Assembly: GCA_964575955.1 (NCBI GenBank)
Contig: CAZNTG010000013.1
Location: 1-42,893, forward strand
Direction: 5' to 3'
Length of the DNA: 42,893 bases
From: an uncultured Thermoproteaceae archaeon
Lineage (GTDB): Archaea > Thermoproteota > Thermoprotei > Thermoproteales > Thermocladiaceae
The notes beneath the pieces are model-generated. The model saw only the letters and a program-made list of their open reading frames with translations. It did no database searches and was not told where the DNA came from. This document shows positions 11,920 through 37,166 of this stretch, piece after piece. How positions within the stretch are numbered: position 1 is the first letter of the stretch; each line of letters opens with the position of its first letter. Both the position numbers and the translations under genes were made by a program.

Positions 11920-13029
11920 GTGAGAGTACTAGTAATACATCCACATCTAAATGTTAAAGGTGGTTCTGAAAGACTTACAAAGATATTGATAGATGGTCTA
12001 AAAGTTATGAATTATGAATTTAAAATAATAACATCAATATATGATGAAGAGTGGTTCTCACAATATAGTAAAAATATGGAAATACTTAAGACAGGTATGA
12101 AATTTGAAGATGTTGAAAATAAGATTTCAAATATAGTAGAAAACTACGAACCTGATATTGCAATAGTTATGGTTCAAGATCCAGCATACTGCTACATGGT
12201 TAAGAAAGTTAAAAATATACCAACACTAATGTACATACACTTTCCAATAGATGAAGAGATTAGTGAAGAAAATTTAAGAAATTATGAAGAATTACTAAGA
12301 TTCCCAACATTAACACCAAAATTCTTAAACTATCCTGACATAGTTCTAGTAAATTCAAGAAGAACAAAACTTGCAGTTGAGATGTTATGGCCATATAGAC
12401 CACACGTAGTCTATCCATGTATTGATGAGATATTCTTCAGAGAAGATGTAGATGAAGAAATTATAAAGAAGAAGGAACCTCTAATAATATATGTTGGGAG
12501 ATTTGTATCATTAAAACGTCAAGACTTACTAATACACATGTTTATAACAATTAAAGAGAAAGTTAAAAACTCAAGATTAGCAATACTAGGATTTGTAGAT
12601 CCAAGACATAGAGAATATTATGAAAATGTTAAGAAAACATATGAAGAACTTCAAGATAAGATTAAAGATGTAGAACTTGTAGAATCACCAAATGATAAAA
12701 AACTACTACAATACTATAGGCAGGCTAGAGTTTATGTTCATCTGAGAATTGGTGAACATTTTGGAATGGCACCAGTAGAAGCAATGAGTCAAGGAACACC
12801 AATAGTAATAAGACTACCAACAGGATTAGCAGAAAAATTCAAACATGAAATACATGGATATTTTGCAGAAACAGATTATGAACTAATAAAATATACAATA
12901 AAAATACTTAAAGAAGATAATGAAAAGTATATGAAAATGTCTAAGAGATGTATAGAAGACTCAAAAGAATTCATATACAAAAACTTCATAGAGAACATAA
13001 TAAAAATAGTAAAACCGAACAAAACATAG
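11920..13029 (+). CDS. Glycosyltransferase family 4
   Basis: GGSER, VGRF, EHFGMAPVEAMSQGTP. Confidence 0.92.
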   Translation: MRVLVIHPHLNVKGGSERLTKILIDGLKVMNYEFKIITSIYDEEWFSQYSKNMEILKTGMKFEDVENKISNIVENYEPDIAIVMVQDPAYCYMVKKVKNIPTLMYIHFPIDEEISEENLRNYEELLRFPTLTPKFLNYPDIVLVNSRRTKLAVEMLWPYRPHVVYPCIDEIFFREDVDEEIIKKKEPLIIYVGRFVSLKRQDLLIHMFITIKEKVKNSRLAILGFVDPRHREYYENVKKTYEELQDKIKDVELVESPNDKKLLQYYRQARVYVHLRIGEHFGMAPVEAMSQGTPIVIRLPTGLAEKFKHEIHGYFAETDYELIKYTIKILKEDNEKYMKMSKRCIEDSKEFIYKNFIENIIKIVKPNKT

Positions 13030-13071
13030 ATGCTGATAAGATAATGTAGATATAGAACATCTATACAACAT

Positions 13072-13098
13072 ATGTATACGTATTCAACACGTATACAT
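13072..13098. repeat. Perfect 10-bp inverted repeat with 7-nt spacer
   Basis: ATGTATACGT-attcaac-ACGTATACAT. Confidence 0.6.
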
Positions 13099-13206
13099 TA
13101 TATCCACATACTCTAACGTCTACCACTACACTCTACCTACCATAGCCCTAACCTGATAATATAGTATCATCTAGAAACTATCTAAAAGGTAATTTCAAAT
13201 CTTGTT

Positions 13207-13255
13207 TCAGTTCCCGAGGTATTCTTCATGTCTCAGGTTGGTATCCTATCATCAC
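13207..13255 (-). ncRNA. Box C/D guide sRNA
   Basis: Minus strand: GTGATGA-taggataccaac-CTGA-gac-ATGAAGA-atacctcgggaa-CTGA. Confidence 0.9.
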
Positions 13256-13297
13256 TATGCTAGAATTGTGATGTGTAGAATTTAATTTGTAAGTGTT

Positions 13298-13368
13298 AGC
13301 CGCGGACCGCCCGACTCTCCCCACGCGGGACCAAAGCCCGCCATGCTTGGCCGCTACACCACCCGGCT
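13298..13368 (-). tRNA. tRNA-Gln(TTG) 5' fragment (44 nt, acceptor 5' strand through anticodon stem) plus GC-rich trailer; putative split-tRNA 5' half
   Basis: AGCCGGG-TG-GTGT-AGCGGCCAA-GCAT-G-GCGGG-CTTTGGT-CCCGC, then GTGGGGAGAGTCGGGCGGTCCGCGGCT; no TTCRAAT T-loop. Confidence 0.8.
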
Positions 13369-13397
13369 TATGTCCATCTCTTAGTATCTGGTGTGTG

Positions 13398-13412
13398 TTA
13401 AAAATCTTTCTC
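13398..13412 (-). promoter_or_regulatory. BRE/TATA-like promoter of the tRNA-Gln fragment
   Basis: Minus strand GAGAAAGATTTTTAA about 30 nt upstream of tRNA position 1. Confidence 0.55.
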
Positions 13413-13413
13413 T

Positions 13414-14085
13414 TTATTCTCCTAATAGTTCTGCTATATCAGGACTTAGGTGTAGTTCTTTTCCTGTTATGTAGTATACTCTCGATATTCTTATTATTGG
13501 TCCTCTTGGTCCAAAATCTTCTCCATCTAACATCTGTATTTCACATGTGAAGTCTGGTCTATTGTATACTGGTCTAACTACTATTATTGTATCATATTGA
13601 TTTTTTAATTCATCTAGATTTCTAGTCTGTATTACTGGTATGTTTAATATTTGTGAAAGTATGTCAACAACTTCATGATAGTCAAATGATACTATTATTG
13701 CTGTTTTTGCCTTTTTCTTAACAACTCTTCTTATAGGCATGTCGACTATAAGTTTAACACCTATAAGCTTTATTATGTATGGTAACCATCTATATGTTGA
13801 GTTTTTATAATCGATCTCTATAAATTTTATAGCTATAGGATTACCTCTTCTAATAGTTATATACATTATATATGTTGCATTTCTCTCCATAGCTTTAACA
13901 ACAAGTTGGTCAAGCGACATTCTACCTCTATTAATTTTTATAGAATTTGGAATTGCTATAGAGAGTTCATTTAGGAATTGTCTAACTCTAAGATTGGGAT
14001 CTCTAGATGATGATAATGCTATTCTATTAACTTTGAATTCTTTCCTAACTACGGTACTTATCCTCTCTTTGCTCTTTCTCTCCAC
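13414..14085 (-). CDS. Brix/Imp4-like ribosome biogenesis protein
   Basis: SSSRDPNLRVRQFLNEL, INRGRMSL, RRGNP, GPIIRI; downstream of rpl37ae. Confidence 0.85.
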   Translation of the reverse strand: MERKSKERISTVVRKEFKVNRIALSSSRDPNLRVRQFLNELSIAIPNSIKINRGRMSLDQLVVKAMERNATYIMYITIRRGNPIAIKFIEIDYKNSTYRWLPYIIKLIGVKLIVDMPIRRVVKKKAKTAIIVSFDYHEVVDILSQILNIPVIQTRNLDELKNQYDTIIVVRPVYNRPDFTCEIQMLDGEDFGPRGPIIRISRVYYITGKELHLSPDIAELLGE

Positions 14086-14894: not shown

Positions 14895-14943
14895 GTGAAG
14901 AAGAGATCAGCGACTGAATATTGATGAACGCTATCCTAGCTGA
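14895..14943 (+). ncRNA. Box C/D guide sRNA
   Basis: GTGAAGA-agagatcagcga-CTGA-ata-TTGATGA-acgctatcctag-CTGA between secY and rpl14. Confidence 0.85.
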
Positions 14944-16371
14944 TTAAACTCTCTCAACACCTACAAACCTTCTAAGTCCTGGAAATAGCTCAAATACATG
15001 CTCTTGAACTGCTATAGCGTAGTACTGTAATGCAATCTCTATAAGTAACATCAATCCAATACCACCACTAAATACCTGTAGTAGATCTCCAAGTGCAGCA
15101 ATCAAACCTGACAATATTCCGCTAGTTATGGTTAATGCAAAGATATACTTCTCCAAATACTTAGCTATTATTCTCAGGTTTGGTCTAAAGCCTGGAATAC
15201 TAAGCTTAGCTTCAACAATATACTTAGCCTGATCTTCAGCAGACATTCCAGCTATGTTAACCCAAATGTATGCATATATTGTACATAGAACAACATATAT
15301 CACAATATGAGCAACAACATACTGTGGAGTAATATTTGGAGGTGGTGGTGACCATAGGAAGTAGAGTACAGAGTTTGGACATGGAACATATCCACCTCTA
15401 CCATAAGGTTCTAAACATGCAAGCCATTTAAGTGCTGGATTATGCATTGCTGCATAAGCAACATACTGTAATGCATGTGATATTAATATTAGTGTGAAGG
15501 CTGTGAAGATTATTGGAAGTACTGATACATACATGACACGTAGAGGAAGACTATACTTAATACCTCTATACTGTGGAATTGATAGTGGTATTGGTACACT
15601 AAGCATCTCTAGATAAAGTATGAAGAATCCTAGCAATACTGTAGCTATAAGTCCAACAACAGTACCACCTCTAAAGAACGAGTAGAATAGGTCTGTTGGA
15701 AAGCTACCTCTAGCAACTGCAGCAATAACTGCAGGAATTATACCTACAGGTAGACCATCAGGACCTATAACAGGAGAGAAAGTATACCAAAGTACTGTCT
15801 TTGCAATACTTACAAGTATGAATAGACTAATACCACTACCAAGACCCCAACCATTAGTAATCAAGTCGTCTAGCAATAGTATTATTAGAGTAGCTATTAG
15901 AAGTTGAACAATAACAGCAATCTTCAACGGTATTGTAGGTACACGAAGCATACCAATAGTCACAGCTACTAGAGCTTCAAAGAATGCAATTATGAGAGAT
16001 AGTAACTTCATAAGAGCATTAAATCTAGCTCTATCAACAGGATCTTCAAGATCAATATCTAACAATCCTGAAAAAACTAAAATCTCCAACAATATACCTG
16101 CAATAACTATAGGACCAATACCAAGATGTGCAAGTGTTCCACGACTAGTTGCAAAAATTAGTGACATAAGTCTAAGAATACCAACACTTGGAGTTGCAGT
16201 CTGGTAGACTCCGTATAGAGGTACAACCATCATCATTAAGTATATCGTAACAGCAACAAAAGTCCATAAGAGTCTAGTAGTTAATGGTTGTGGAGTCTTA
16301 GGTCTAGGAACAGTAGGCATTAATCTTAGTATAGGATCCAACTTCTCAATTAGAGATCTTACCTGAGACAC
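14944..16371 (-). CDS. secY: Protein translocase subunit SecY (Sec61 alpha)
   Basis: GTLAHLGIGPIV, GWGLGSGISLFI, YVSVLPII, IPGFR; multiple TM helices. Confidence 0.97.
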   Translation of the reverse strand: MSQVRSLIEKLDPILRLMPTVPRPKTPQPLTTRLLWTFVAVTIYLMMMVVPLYGVYQTATPSVGILRLMSLIFATSRGTLAHLGIGPIVIAGILLEILVFSGLLDIDLEDPVDRARFNALMKLLSLIIAFFEALVAVTIGMLRVPTIPLKIAVIVQLLIATLIILLLDDLITNGWGLGSGISLFILVSIAKTVLWYTFSPVIGPDGLPVGIIPAVIAAVARGSFPTDLFYSFFRGGTVVGLIATVLLGFFILYLEMLSVPIPLSIPQYRGIKYSLPLRVMYVSVLPIIFTAFTLILISHALQYVAYAAMHNPALKWLACLEPYGRGGYVPCPNSVLYFLWSPPPPNITPQYVVAHIVIYVVLCTIYAYIWVNIAGMSAEDQAKYIVEAKLSIPGFRPNLRIIAKYLEKYIFALTITSGILSGLIAALGDLLQVFSGGIGLMLLIEIALQYYAIAVQEHVFELFPGLRRFVGVERV

Positions 16372-19614: not shown

Positions 19615-20688
19615 CTATAGATGTGCTAATACTAGGAGTAGATAAACTATAACGAAGATGGGAATACCAACCTTCAAAGCATGTTTAGCCCACTCTACAA
19701 ATCTAATCTTCAATCTAGATGCAACAATTATGTTAGGTATATTTCCAGGAATTAAAAATCCTCCAGATATCAATGCTGAAGTTATGAAAAATACAACATC
19801 TTTCAAAGTTAATGCTGGAGACACAAGTGCAGCTACTAGAGTAGCATTGTCAACAATAGCAGACATAATTCCCAACAGATAGAATAGGTCTGAACTTAGT
19901 TTAGAGAAGTATAATTTTACTAGAATTGAGTAGCTTTCTCCAAGAATAACTAGACCCATAATGAACAGGTATATCTTACCTGCACGAATAAAAACATCTT
20001 TCAAACCTTCTTCAACTTCTATATAAGCTTCTTCAAGATACTCAACTTCCCTCCTCTTAACTACAATTCCTGAAAGTATACTAAACAGGATTACTAGAGG
20101 TATGACAATTATTCCAAAAGTATCTACTAGAAAGCCAGGACCTGTATAGTAATGAGCTTCTTTTAACTTAGCTACAAGTATTGTTGATAGTGGTTCACCA
20201 ACAGGTGTTAAAACTGCACCAATTCCAAGAGCATAGCATGAGTAGATACTATACAATATCTTACTTCTCCTATCAATCTTCATAGATTTAACAATCTCTG
20301 AAAGTATTACAGCTGCAACAATTACAGATATGAGACTTGAAGATATTCCAAGTATCAGTGTTATACATGCAAGAACTATGTGCATATGTTTCAACTTTAC
20401 AATCCTCTCGGCAAATCTATCAATTCTACTTCTCAGATAGTATGCCAATATTCCAAATATCAAAACTACCTGTACTATACCAATAGGAAATCCATGAATC
20501 ATTACAGGTTCTTTCAAAGCTTCAATCCATACATCTACATCAAATATCTTCCCAGTTATAGTACCTGCAACTACACCCATTGAGAATAGAAAAATTTCAA
20601 GATTTTCCTCAATAATTCTTACAGTTGCAGGAAGTATTAATATTAATGCAAGAATTATGAATAGTAATATTGATACTATTTGAATCAT
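19615..20688 (-). CDS. DUF1646-family membrane protein (putative transporter)
   Basis: IEENLEIFLF, GAVLTPVGEPLSTI, DNATL, GGFLIPGNIPNI. Confidence 0.85.
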   Translation of the reverse strand: MIQIVSILLFIILALILILPATVRIIEENLEIFLFSMGVVAGTITGKIFDVDVWIEALKEPVMIHGFPIGIVQVVLIFGILAYYLRSRIDRFAERIVKLKHMHIVLACITLILGISSSLISVIVAAVILSEIVKSMKIDRRSKILYSIYSCYALGIGAVLTPVGEPLSTILVAKLKEAHYYTGPGFLVDTFGIIVIPLVILFSILSGIVVKRREVEYLEEAYIEVEEGLKDVFIRAGKIYLFIMGLVILGESYSILVKLYFSKLSSDLFYLLGIMSAIVDNATLVAALVSPALTLKDVVFFITSALISGGFLIPGNIPNIIVASRLKIRFVEWAKHALKVGIPIFVIVYLLLVLAHL

Positions 20689-22415: not shown

Positions 22416-22524
<109 letters not shown>

Positions 22525-30619: not shown

Positions 30620-30697
30620 TGGCGGCCCCGCCGGGATTTGAACCCGGGACCTACGGCTTAGGAGGCCGCCGCTCTATCCAGGCTGAGCTACGGGGCC
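30620..30697 (-). tRNA. tRNA-Arg(CCT), intronless, encoded CCA
   Basis: GGCCCCG-TA-GCTCAGCCTGGATAGAGC-G-GCGGC-CTCCTAA-GCCGT-AGGTC-CCGGGTTCAAATCCCGG-CGGGGCC-G-CCA. Confidence 0.97.
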
Positions 30698-35520: not shown

Positions 35521-37166
35521 TGTTTGAAATAGTAGATAAAGATCTTGCTGGACGTATAGGAAAGATATACACTAAGAGTGGAGTAGTTGAAACACCAGCA
35601 CTATTTCCAGTAGTAAATCCAATAAAACAGACAGTAGATCTTGAAGAAATTAAAAAGGTAGGTTTTAATCAAATAATAACAAATGCATACCTAATATATA
35701 GAAATTATGGAGATATATGCATAGACACTGGAATACACAATCTACTAAATTGGAATGGTATAGTAATGACAGACTCAGGAGCATATCAACTAATGGAGTA
35801 TGGTGAAGTTGAGATAGATCCTGACACAGTATTGAAATATCAGGTAGATATTGGTTCAGATATTGGAGTAATACTAGACATACCAACAAGAGCTGAAGTT
35901 GATAGAGATGTAGTATTTCTAGAAGTTGAAGAGACTTTAAGAAGAGCTAGAAGAGCAATAATGCTTAGAGATGAGTACGATCCTGAGCATAGAATGCTAC
36001 TAGTAGGACCTGTACAGGGTGGTGAACATGTAGATATTGTAGCATACTGTGCTAGAAAATTATCAAAATTAGACTTCGACATATATGCTATTGGAAGTGT
36101 AACACTATATCTAGAACAGTACAACTATACAAAAATTGTAGAGACAATAATAGCAGCAAAATTAAACTTACCACAAAACAGACCTATACATCTATTCGGT
36201 GCTGGTCATCCAATGATAATACCGATAGCAGTAGCTTTAGGAGTAGACATGTTTGACTCAGCTAGCTACATACTCTACGCTAGAGATGATAGAATAATGC
36301 TACATGACAGAACGGTAAGATTAGAAGATATAAAGATTGAAAATATACCATGCACATGTCCAATATGTACAAAATATAGCGTCAAGGAGCTTAGAGAGAT
36401 GTCAAAAAATGAAAGAGAGAAACTAATAGCAATACACAACCTCTACATACTAAAGAGAGAGATTGACGAAGTAAAACAGAGAATTAGAGAAGGAACATTA
36501 TGGGAATATCTACAGGAAAAATCTATGAGTGATGCAAGACTAAGACAAGCACTAATACTAATATCTAAGATTAGTAGAAAACTGTTGAAGATAAGTCCAA
36601 CAACTAGAGGAGATGTACATGGTATAGATATTCAATGTATGTTAGATATATCAAGACCACAATATACACAACACATATATAAACTATGTAGAAGATATGT
36701 ACCACCAAAATCAAAAGAAATACTACTAATACTTCCAGAACCAAATGAAAGACCATTTAACAGAAGTTCAATATTTGTAAAACTATGTAATAAACTTGAG
36801 AAATTAGGAATATTAGATAAAGTACATATATGCTTTCTAAGTAAGATATTTGGAATAATACCACACGAAATATCTGACATATACCCATTAGCACAGTTTG
36901 AATATGTTAAAAATTTGAAATGCTTACAAAATCTTGAGATAGTCTCAATATATAACTATCTTAAAACCCATGGAAGTAATTATAGAACTATAATATTAGT
37001 ACTACCTAGAGATGAAGCTTTCAAAATATGTAGAATAGTTAAAAAATTACTAAATAACTGTAAGGTTGTTATATACAGTGTTGGTAGAGAAGAGTCATGG
37101 ACATCATATATAGATTCTATATGTAGTATGGTGTTCCTTCACGTCTCTTCTGCTCTTCCTCAATAG
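35520..37166 (+). CDS. tgtA: Archaeosine tRNA-guanine(15) transglycosylase
   Basis: GRIG, ETPALFPVVNP, MTDSGAYQ, PVQGG, HLFGAGHP, FDSASY, CTCPIC, HNL. Confidence 0.96.
   Translation: MFEIVDKDLAGRIGKIYTKSGVVETPALFPVVNPIKQTVDLEEIKKVGFNQIITNAYLIYRNYGDICIDTGIHNLLNWNGIVMTDSGAYQLMEYGEVEIDPDTVLKYQVDIGSDIGVILDIPTRAEVDRDVVFLEVEETLRRARRAIMLRDEYDPEHRMLLVGPVQGGEHVDIVAYCARKLSKLDFDIYAIGSVTLYLEQYNYTKIVETIIAAKLNLPQNRPIHLFGAGHPMIIPIAVALGVDMFDSASYILYARDDRIMLHDRTVRLEDIKIENIPCTCPICTKYSVKELREMSKNEREKLIAIHNLYILKREIDEVKQRIREGTLWEYLQEKSMSDARLRQALILISKISRKLLKISPTTRGDVHGIDIQCMLDISRPQYTQHIYKLCRRYVPPKSKEILLILPEPNERPFNRSSIFVKLCNKLEKLGILDKVHICFLSKIFGIIPHEISDIYPLAQFEYVKNLKCLQNLEIVSIYNYLKTHGSNYRTIILVLPRDEAFKICRIVKKLLNNCKVVIYSVGREESWTSYIDSICSMVFLHVSSALPQ

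Follow-up and report, generated by a model that had tools for sequence, protein, structure and literature searches.

Introduction

Split transfer RNA (tRNA) genes are rare, and they hold a central place in the debate over whether tRNAs began as halves or were divided only later. In the sections of two surveys on which we draw, they are listed for Nanoarchaeum equitans, Caldivirga maquilingensis, Aeropyrum pernix, Thermosphaera aggregans and two Staphylothermus species (PMC4033280, PMC3218864), and the 2014 review puts the number of trans-spliced genes at 29, covering 12 anticodons and seven genomes (PMC4033280). According to the same sections, tRNA-Glu(UUC) and tRNA-Glu(CUC) of N. equitans have one common 3' half, joined at 37/38 (PMC3218864, Table 1; PMC4033280), and a split tRNA-Gln(UUG), broken at 32/33, is already listed for this organism (PMC3218864, Table 1). 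Here we analyse a stretch of 42,893 nt from an uncultured Thermoproteaceae archaeon (assembly GCA_964575955.1, contig CAZNTG010000013.1; the whole stretch is called the window), which carries on its minus strand, at 13298-13368, a tRNA-Gln(UUG) piece that lacks a T arm. We propose, with a probability of about 0.88, that this piece is a 5'-half gene of a trans-spliced tRNA-Gln, which would have two such genes and use one shared 3' half with a junction at 37/38. An earlier reading of the window, made from its letters alone (hereafter, the sequence-only reading), had suggested a trans-split 5' piece at this place, with no mention of the N. equitans tRNA-Gln(UUG).

The genome of the window, coded G000 (its relatives are G001 onward), is a draft of 1.52 Mb with 33% G+C, assembled in 15 contigs and 94.69% complete, in which the window is contig C13. 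Forty relatives were compared by similarity search with the 5' and 3' pieces, and 12 5' halves and six 3' halves from six genomes (G000-G004 and G006) were parsed side by side.

Results

The 5' piece, its 3' half and a second 5' half

A word search of the G+C-rich trailer of the 5' piece on both strands of G000 showed that its last 17 nt (13314-13298) have an exact reverse complement at C6:502253-502269. Downstream of this leader come AACAG and then A-CCCGC-CGAC-CCCGG-TTCGAAT-CCGGG-CCCGGCT-A, that is, an anticodon-stem 3' strand, a variable loop, a T arm, an acceptor 3' strand matching AGCCGGG and a discriminator. The 3'-half gene covers C6:502253-502309. The 17-nt trailer has this one exact reverse complement in the 1.52-Mb genome against 1.3e-6 expected, and finding it directly upstream of a matching 3' tRNA part is more than chance. 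A second 5' half lies at C2:~14923-14993. Its anticodon is CTG, its exon is otherwise identical, and it has the same GGAGAG and trailer; the 10 nt after G37 differ from those of the UUG half. The two 5' halves, UUG and CUG, are predicted to use one common 3' half. An orphan T-arm scan of G000 with a strict motif returned just the C6 piece, and in a scan for G+C-rich islands all three pieces were among the non-tRNA islands.

The features of the 5' piece in the window are as follows.

13398..13404, minus strand: TATA-like box TTTTTAA with purine-rich GAAAG before it, a putative archaeal promoter judged at the sequence level
13331..13368, minus strand: tRNA-Gln(UUG) 5' exon, with the AGCCGGG acceptor 5' strand, D arm, GCGGG anticodon-stem 5' strand and loop CTTTGG up to G37
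13332..13334, minus strand: anticodon TTG, positions 34-36
13315..13330, minus strand: retained intron-like segment, with the first intron nt at 13330, a CC..GG hairpin at 13329-13321, GGAG at 13320-13317 and AG at 13316-13315
13298..13314, minus strand: trailer, the 17-nt trans-helix strand, exact reverse complement of the 3'-half leader at G000:C6:502253-502269

Read on the minus strand from 13368, the piece consists of AGCCGGG, a D arm, GCGGG, CTTTGG(T), CCCGC (13329-13325, able to pair with GCGGG) and then GTGGGGAGAGTCGGGCGGTCCGCGGCT to 13298, after which the DNA is AT-rich. The stretch 13324-13298 has 27 nt, 21/27 of them G+C, and was taken as a whole for the trailer by the sequence-only reading. 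In fact 17 of these 27 nt pair with the partner, and the retained intron ends with the first 10, GTGGGGAGAG. The TTTTTAA box at 13404-13398 stands at -36 relative to tRNA position 1. The partner on C6 thus bears out the trans-split 5' piece proposed from the letters, all the sequence features described for it (AGCCGGG, TTG, CCCGC, the 27-nt G+C-rich stretch and the AT-rich DNA after it) are confirmed, and the promoter-like sequence ahead of it is represented by the box at -36. The suggested search of the genome for the complement of the trailer beside a T arm led to C6:502253-502269. The partner that had been predicted is right in part: it has the trailer complement, GGTTCGAATCC and CCCGGCTA, but only 17 nt are paired and the sequence goes on with AACAG, not with CTCTCCCC.

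The 5' piece is not called as a tRNA by ARAGORN, nor by Rfam at its gathering score. Both programs find just two tRNAs in the window, Arg(CCT) (30620-30697) and a Tyr with an intron (22416-22524), hence no T arm for the 5' piece exists in the window, as had been stated. The layout of a permuted tRNA gene was not seen either: the window has no T arm besides those of Arg and Tyr, and the 3' part lies on a different contig. The piece is flanked by a GT4 glycosyltransferase, an open reading frame (ORF) without Pfam match and the ribosomal proteins L37ae and L14. Pfam searches of the ORFs beside the three loci (5 ORFs + 6 ORFs) showed no integrase or transposase, in agreement with the flanks described earlier; with no such gene in the ORFs scanned and no intact tRNA-Gln copy in the assembly, the marks of an att relic were not found.

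In the sequencing run X1, which is possibly the assembly's own source, overlapping exact unitigs tile over 13324, and the misassembly feared at about that position was not seen. The unitigs of X1 and X2 are short and branch at the repeated 5' half, and X2 has a CUG-type copy; neither a joint nor a misassembly was seen in them, and they add little. Among the sequencing runs listed for the locus, no RNA run appeared.

Some further observations concern the surroundings. On the strand of the 5' half and 40 nt downstream of it lies a C/D-box small RNA (sRNA)-like gene, at 13205-13259 (minus strand), with the boxes GTGATGA ... CTGA ... ATGAAGA ... CTGA. Its match to Rfam sR9, with 23.7 bits and E=0.022, is under the gathering score of 36, and in G001, G002 and G003 a comparable C/D-box arrangement comes after the orthologous 5'-half locus. 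Lowering the Rfam threshold to E<=10 over 13000-13700 gave no tRNA match, just weak C/D-box sRNA matches downstream. The tRNA-Tyr(GTA) at 22416-22524 (plus strand) has a 31-nt intron and scores 57.6 bits in Rfam; ARAGORN reports it only with introns allowed.

Position of the junction

The 3' exon begins with A-CCCGC in all six 3' halves. The shared 3' half therefore supplies A38 and the entire anticodon-stem 3' strand, which places the junction at the canonical position 37/38. On the other side, the likeness of the 5' halves stops at G37. After it comes T or G in the UUG halves and A in the CUG halves, and the 7-10 nt following this variable nt differ among the 12 5' halves. CCCGC and GGGGAGAG of the window piece are accordingly assigned, by comparison of the halves, to the retained intron and not to the exon.

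The sequence-only reading had placed the junction near 43/44-44/45, with a 5' exon running through the anticodon stem. This was not upheld. In its favour, GCGGG...CCCGC is present in the window piece, in this one genome, and an in-silico join at 44/45 likewise scores as tRNA-Gln in ARAGORN. Nevertheless, this CCCGC is peculiar to G000 (it is CCCGA in G006), and none of the other 11 halves (the one with CUG on C2 plus 10 more) conserves it there; moreover, the A-CCCGC-CGAC... that the shared 3' half brings with its own A38 would be redundant. The cis-spliced gene of a seventh genome of the genus, G005, argues in the same direction: it is a contiguous tRNA-Gln(CUG) with a 19-nt intron at 37/38. 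Taken together, a junction at 43-45 is extremely unlikely.

The cis intron of G005 reads (slashes mark splice sites) CTCTGG/A-GCGG-GGCT-CCGC-GGAG-AG/ACCCGC, the same layout as the 5'-half segment. In another genus, G010 and G013 have 17-nt tRNA-Gln introns at 37/38 that end in GTAG-AA/A. The cis tRNA-Gln genes of G005, G010 and G013 thus have in common with the split form the exons, the GG/N 5' bulge and the intron end (GGAG-AG/A or GTAG-AA/A). They differ from it in that the 3' exon follows the intron directly, with no trailer, no separate 3' gene and no sharing.

Conservation, covariation and the genes for processing

Among the 40 relatives, trailer and leader were found only in members of the same genus. 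G001, G002, G003, G004 and G006 each have a UUG 5' half, a CUG 5' half and one 3' half, with one extra copy apiece in G003 and G006. The 5' exon is identical in 12/12 5' halves save position 34. The trans helix between trailer and leader takes these forms.

G000: 17 bp, innermost pair T:A, outermost pair T:A
G003: 17 bp, innermost pair G:C, outermost pair T:A
G006: 17 bp, innermost pair G:C, outermost pair C:G
G001, G002 and G004: 15 bp, innermost C opposite A, outermost pair T:A

The innermost and outermost pairs thus show compensatory double changes, in both 5' halves and in the 3' half alike. Each of them is seen at all three loci of the genome concerned, which are unlinked and so changed together. 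The extra CUG copy of G006 (L044) has a T-to-C change that breaks one helix pair.

A TATA-like box stands at -36 to -39 from tRNA position 1 in 12/12 5' halves of the six genomes. In the 3' halves it was found by regular expression at -33 to -43 from the leader in 5/6, and the sixth shows ACATATAAAC by eye. From these boxes we infer that each half would be transcribed from its own TATA-type putative promoter. G000 also encodes two PF01974 (EndA-family) proteins in open frames of 188 and 177 aa, and one RtcB (592 bits). Two EndA-family genes are what is expected for the heterotetrameric crenarchaeal endonuclease. In some relatives RtcB looks different: the matches L184 and L186 (G004:C43, G004:C35) and L181 (G008:C6) have frames of 789 and 973 aa or are split across two contigs, compared with a G000 frame of 485 aa, which suggests inteins or insertions.

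Outside the set of relatives, the 14-nt helix core matches at least 120 stretches in genome contigs, mostly of high-GC bacteria. Among the matches listed, L121, a contig of an uncultured Thermoproteaceae archaeon metagenome-assembled genome (MAG), is identical to the G006 UUG half over the region shown. A metagenome scan with a leader-to-T-arm pattern gave one contig, whose 3' half is identical to that of G003, and no new linker variant.

Search for intact tRNA-Gln genes and joining of the exons

We found no intact tRNA-Gln in this 94.69%-complete draft, neither in 46 ARAGORN calls nor in 43 Rfam tRNA hits, all of which coincide with ARAGORN genes of other specificities. The similarity searches in G000 led from the 5' part to C13 and C2 only and from the 3' part to C6 only. 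In this respect, the intact copy that would have spoken for a relic did not turn up. When the exons were joined in silico at 37/38 by script, ARAGORN reported tRNA-Gln(ttg) and tRNA-Gln(ctg), 75 nt each, and RNAfold gave a cloverleaf-like fold. A lone ARAGORN "Gln" call was discarded as spurious; it spans 2,482 nt of AT-rich DNA with a 2,389-nt "intron".

A possible objection would make the window piece a dead fragment, whether pseudogene, att relic or assembly chimera, with tRNA-Gln intact in unassembled DNA. The draft state of the genome, with its 15 contigs, leaves some room for this, and another orphan tRNA 3' fragment does exist in G000, at C10 ~19881-19930. Yet the same three pieces recur in six genomes with putative promoters and compensatory changes, no integrase was found in the ORFs scanned beside the three loci, and the exact unitigs tile across 13324, even if their run may be the assembly source; besides, both Gln isoacceptors would have to be absent by chance from six assemblies. 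We consider a dead fragment very improbable.

Other features of the tRNA set of G000 can be mentioned here. ARAGORN made no call for His, Arg(GCG), Val(CAC) and Ala(CGC), and 14 of its 46 calls have predicted introns, including the spurious Gln and Pyl calls, several of these introns lying at non-canonical positions. The orphan 3' fragment at C10 (~19881-19930, minus strand) reads ...CCGGG-TTCAAAT-CCCGG-CTGGTTC-A. No matching 5' acceptor strand was found elsewhere in the G000 genome, and the fragment may belong to a tRNA that escaped recognition or be an att-like relic. As for further split tRNAs, G000 showed no other orphan T arm with the strict motif. The island scan revealed no long G+C island of rRNA size. 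Contig C8 has 37.9% G+C, compared with 32-35% in the other contigs, and many short G+C-rich islands between 36.8 and 57.2 kb; it may be foreign or viral DNA.

Fold at the junction

In a bulge-helix-bulge (BHB) motif, each strand is cut two nt 3' of the central helix. Drawn by hand on this geometry, the cis introns would have GGAG or GTAG paired with C32-T35 as the central helix, GG/N as the 5' bulge and A-N/A38 as the 3' bulge. All 12 5' halves keep GG/N, the short CC...GG hairpin and an invariant GGAG-A plus one nt, and the trailer comes only afterwards. GGAG pairs 4/4 with positions 32-35 in 12/12 halves, fitting both anticodons because of G:T wobbles. Pairing of the same positions with the four linker nt before the bulge in the 3' half, the arrangement of published split tRNAs, reaches 3/4 in one of the 12 combinations, 2/4 in six and 1/4 in five. 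The 5' site lies in a canonical bulge between the CTYT:GGAG helix and the hairpin in all 12 halves, and in the model drawn the 3' site, N/A38, falls in the loop of a three-way junction. For the BHB that the sequence-only reading had recommended looking for, the answer is divided: the 5' site has its canonical bulge, but no canonical trans BHB was found. Given the full GGAG pairing, the poor linker pairing and the lack of a common trans BHB, we prefer a model in which the 3' bulge is interrupted.

In this best model, the trans helix would interrupt the 3' bulge of an otherwise canonical BHB and so create a three-way junction. The 5' bulge, the outer hairpin and the central 4-bp helix (C32-T35:GGAG) would all lie within the 5' half, and the anticodon stem would stack directly on the CTYT:GGAG helix with zero nt between them. 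The trans helix would branch off between GGAG-A-N of the 5' half and the linker ...C-A-N/A38 of the 3' half.

Two other folds were considered for the same set of pieces. One takes the split tRNA-Gln as real and the fold as of the Nanoarchaeum type, where trailer and leader form the outer helix h' of the BHB, 32-35 with the linker forms the central helix, and the hairpin with GGAGAG is a passive insertion. The G000 UUG linker, with its 3/4 pairs and a 7-bp flanking helix, is compatible with it; the other 11 combinations reach just 2/4 or 1/4, C32 is always opposite C, and the invariant GGAG-A is left unexplained, all of which makes this fold unlikely. The other supposes two steps: EndA would first excise the retained intron from a BHB made of the hairpin, the GG/N bulge, CTYT:GGAG, an A-N-N bulge and the trans helix, exon and trailer would be ligated, and a second BHB would then remove trailer and leader. 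In G001, G002 and G004 exactly 3 unpaired nt (AAC or AGC) separate GGAG from the trans helix, which formally completes a helix-bulge-helix-bulge-helix, but there are merely 2 in G000, G003 and G006. Furthermore, the second BHB would need the same poor 32-35:linker helix, and a gap separates position 32 from the 5' strand of the "outer helix". We regard splicing in two steps as quite improbable, and keep the interrupted 3' bulge as the working model.

Among the candidates tried and set aside, unconstrained cofolding was a poor guide, with minimum free energy (MFE) folds that vary by genome and anticodon and are not tRNA-like for several CUG pairs. The only recurrent brute-force candidate, 34-37 with the linker and a junction at 39/40, has no flanking helix. 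The pairing of linker GGTT with hairpin-loop AACC, by eye, fits G000 and G002 CUG alone.

Evolution and probable exchange of modules

Contiguous tRNA-Gln genes occur in other genera of the family and of the order, including genus g2, which indicates that the split is the derived state. Within the genus, the cis-spliced G005 has 89% identity to G000 in RtcB (partial), compared with 92-95% for G003, G004 and G006, and 68% in a homocitrate-synthase-like protein, compared with 73-84% for the other five genomes. This would fit a split that arose after G005 branched off, although two proteins are thin evidence and they disagree as to the split-bearing genomes nearest to G000. The core of the helix is an imperfect palindrome (GCGG-T-CCGC in the trailer, GCGG-A-CCGC in the leader) comparable to the G005 intron hairpin GCGG-GGCT-CCGC, a likeness that hints, by way of speculation, at a trans helix derived from the intron hairpin.

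The 5'-half locus that follows the ...GGAGAATAA ORF has the C/D-box sRNA behind it and is in synteny with the homocitrate-synthase-like gene; its half is UUG in G000 and CUG in G001-G004 and G006. The other 5'-half locus has the opposite arrangement in G001, G002 and G004. Such swapped loci indicate that the module of anticodon plus hairpin moved between the two 5'-half genes. In the assemblies of G003 (L046/L005) and G006 (L044/L004), contigs of the same flank carry either module, a pattern compatible with MAGs that mix strains or with gene conversion between the 5' halves.

Other tRNA-Gln genes of relatives are also unusual. In G008, from a sister genus, tRNA-Gln(UUG) is split differently, at C3:35487-35518 + 36787-36824 (L029, L050). 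Its 5' piece ends in ...GGCGGG-GGTGGGCCTT; the 3' piece, about 1.3 kb downstream on the same strand, starts with AAGGCCCACCCCCGC-TCTTGAGT-GGCGGGCTTTGG... and has its own TTTTTAAA box. The trans helix would have about 15 bp and the junction would lie near position 26. Between the pieces there is a 317-aa ORF on the other strand with no Pfam match, and the CUG gene of G008 is contiguous (L011). In G021, C26:9442-9562 (L018/L040) is a tRNA-Gln(CUG) with a 45-nt intron that holds a second, partial copy of D stem and anticodon arm with TTG (...GTCTAGCGGGCTTTGGA...). Recombination between the two Gln genes may have left this copy behind, or it may serve as a source of two anticodons.

Discussion

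Established here are three loci and their complementarity, covariation of the helix, no intact gene in the assembly, a joined cloverleaf, the enzyme genes and conservation in six genomes. The locus in all likelihood belongs to a genuine, conserved split tRNA-Gln system, whose junction architecture is probably unusual. In the mechanism that we propose, each 5'-half transcript would comprise positions 1-37, then a complete intron-like segment made up of a 3-nt 5' bulge, the short hairpin, GGAG and A-N, and lastly a G+C-rich trailer of 15-17 nt, and the single 3'-half transcript would contain the complementary leader, a linker of 5-7 nt and tRNA positions 38-73. The trailer would anneal to the leader, with acceptor and anticodon stems forming in trans; the splicing endonuclease would cut after G37 and before A38, and RtcB would ligate the exons into tRNA-Gln(UUG) or tRNA-Gln(CUG).

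Several points weigh against this reading. Transcription and the joining of the exons are steps that we infer from the sequences, and an intact gene may sit in an assembly gap, given a draft of 15 contigs with 5.3% of the marker genes missing. The compensatory changes amount to about two independent events, and the genomes are close kin. GGAG is invariant, hence its pairing is without covariation support. Regarding the fold, which as modelled is not a textbook BHB, a brute-force search found no trans 4-bp helix that has the correct product and both flanking helices in all 12 combinations, and the three-way-junction model lies 1.3-8.6 kcal/mol above the cofold MFE at 37 C. The MFE often pairs 33-36 with the last three linker nt and A38, which would bury the 3' splice site. 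That pairing reaches 4/4 in 7/12 and 3/4 in 5/12 combinations, and its role is unexplained.

We also advance a wider proposal, at slightly less than even odds: that this is a new split architecture (a break at the 3' splice site rather than in the intron loop, a whole and self-folding intron kept by the 5' half, a trans helix in the 3' bulge and an endonuclease that cuts a three-way junction) with exchangeable anticodon cassettes, and that, with the independent split in G008, tRNA-Gln is a recurrent target of splitting in the family. If the three-way-junction fold is true, it would widen the known substrate range of the crenarchaeal splicing endonuclease. For the debate on the origin of tRNAs, the genus would offer a clean "late split" series, with six split genomes and a most divergent member (by two proteins) that is cis-spliced with a homologous intron end, and in the sister genus the same tRNA is split independently, at a different position, in G008. 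The system would also add to the N. equitans tRNA-Glu a further case in which two anticodons are served at 37/38 by one 3' half. Both tRNA-Gln species escape ARAGORN and Rfam, so such genomes would be scored as lacking an essential tRNA. Literature searches, judged by titles and abstract openings, gave no report of a split tRNA-Gln pair with a common 3' half, nor of one in Thermoproteales.

The comparison with described systems, for which we draw on the parts of the cited papers that treat them, begins with N. equitans (Randau et al. 2005). As there, 5' and 3' pieces are encoded as separate genes with their own promoters (putative here) and a G+C-rich complementary trailer and leader. The tRNA-Glu of N. 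equitans has the same 37/38 junction with two synonymous 5' halves on one 3' half, and its endonuclease is of the (alpha-beta)2 type, acting with a ligase, to which EndA and RtcB genes would correspond here. The differences are several. The tRNA-Gln(UUG) of N. equitans is split at 32/33 and the present one at 37/38; in N. equitans the trans helix replaces the terminal loop of the intron, whereas here the whole intron is kept in the 5' half and the trans helix comes after it. The N. equitans cases were verified at the RNA level, while the present system is known from sequence, and the lineage of N. equitans differs from the present, Thermoproteales-affiliated one.

With the tri-split system of Caldivirga (2009), likewise a free-living crenarchaeote and perhaps of the same family, our system shares anticodon pieces that are exchangeable on a shared 3' piece and leaders that resemble introns of related species; the isoacceptors there are those of Gly, Ala and Glu, and here those of Gln (PMC4033280, PMC4090602, PMC10714607). 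Published splits with halves 0.2-5 kb apart are similar in being lineage-restricted, with contiguous or intron-bearing orthologues in close relatives, in a 37/38 junction for Asp, and in a promoter before the 3' half that gives a G+C-rich leader. In those splits the fold is the canonical hBHBh', whereas here the halves are on three contigs, no canonical trans-BHB can be drawn and, unlike in them, one 3' half would serve two anticodons.

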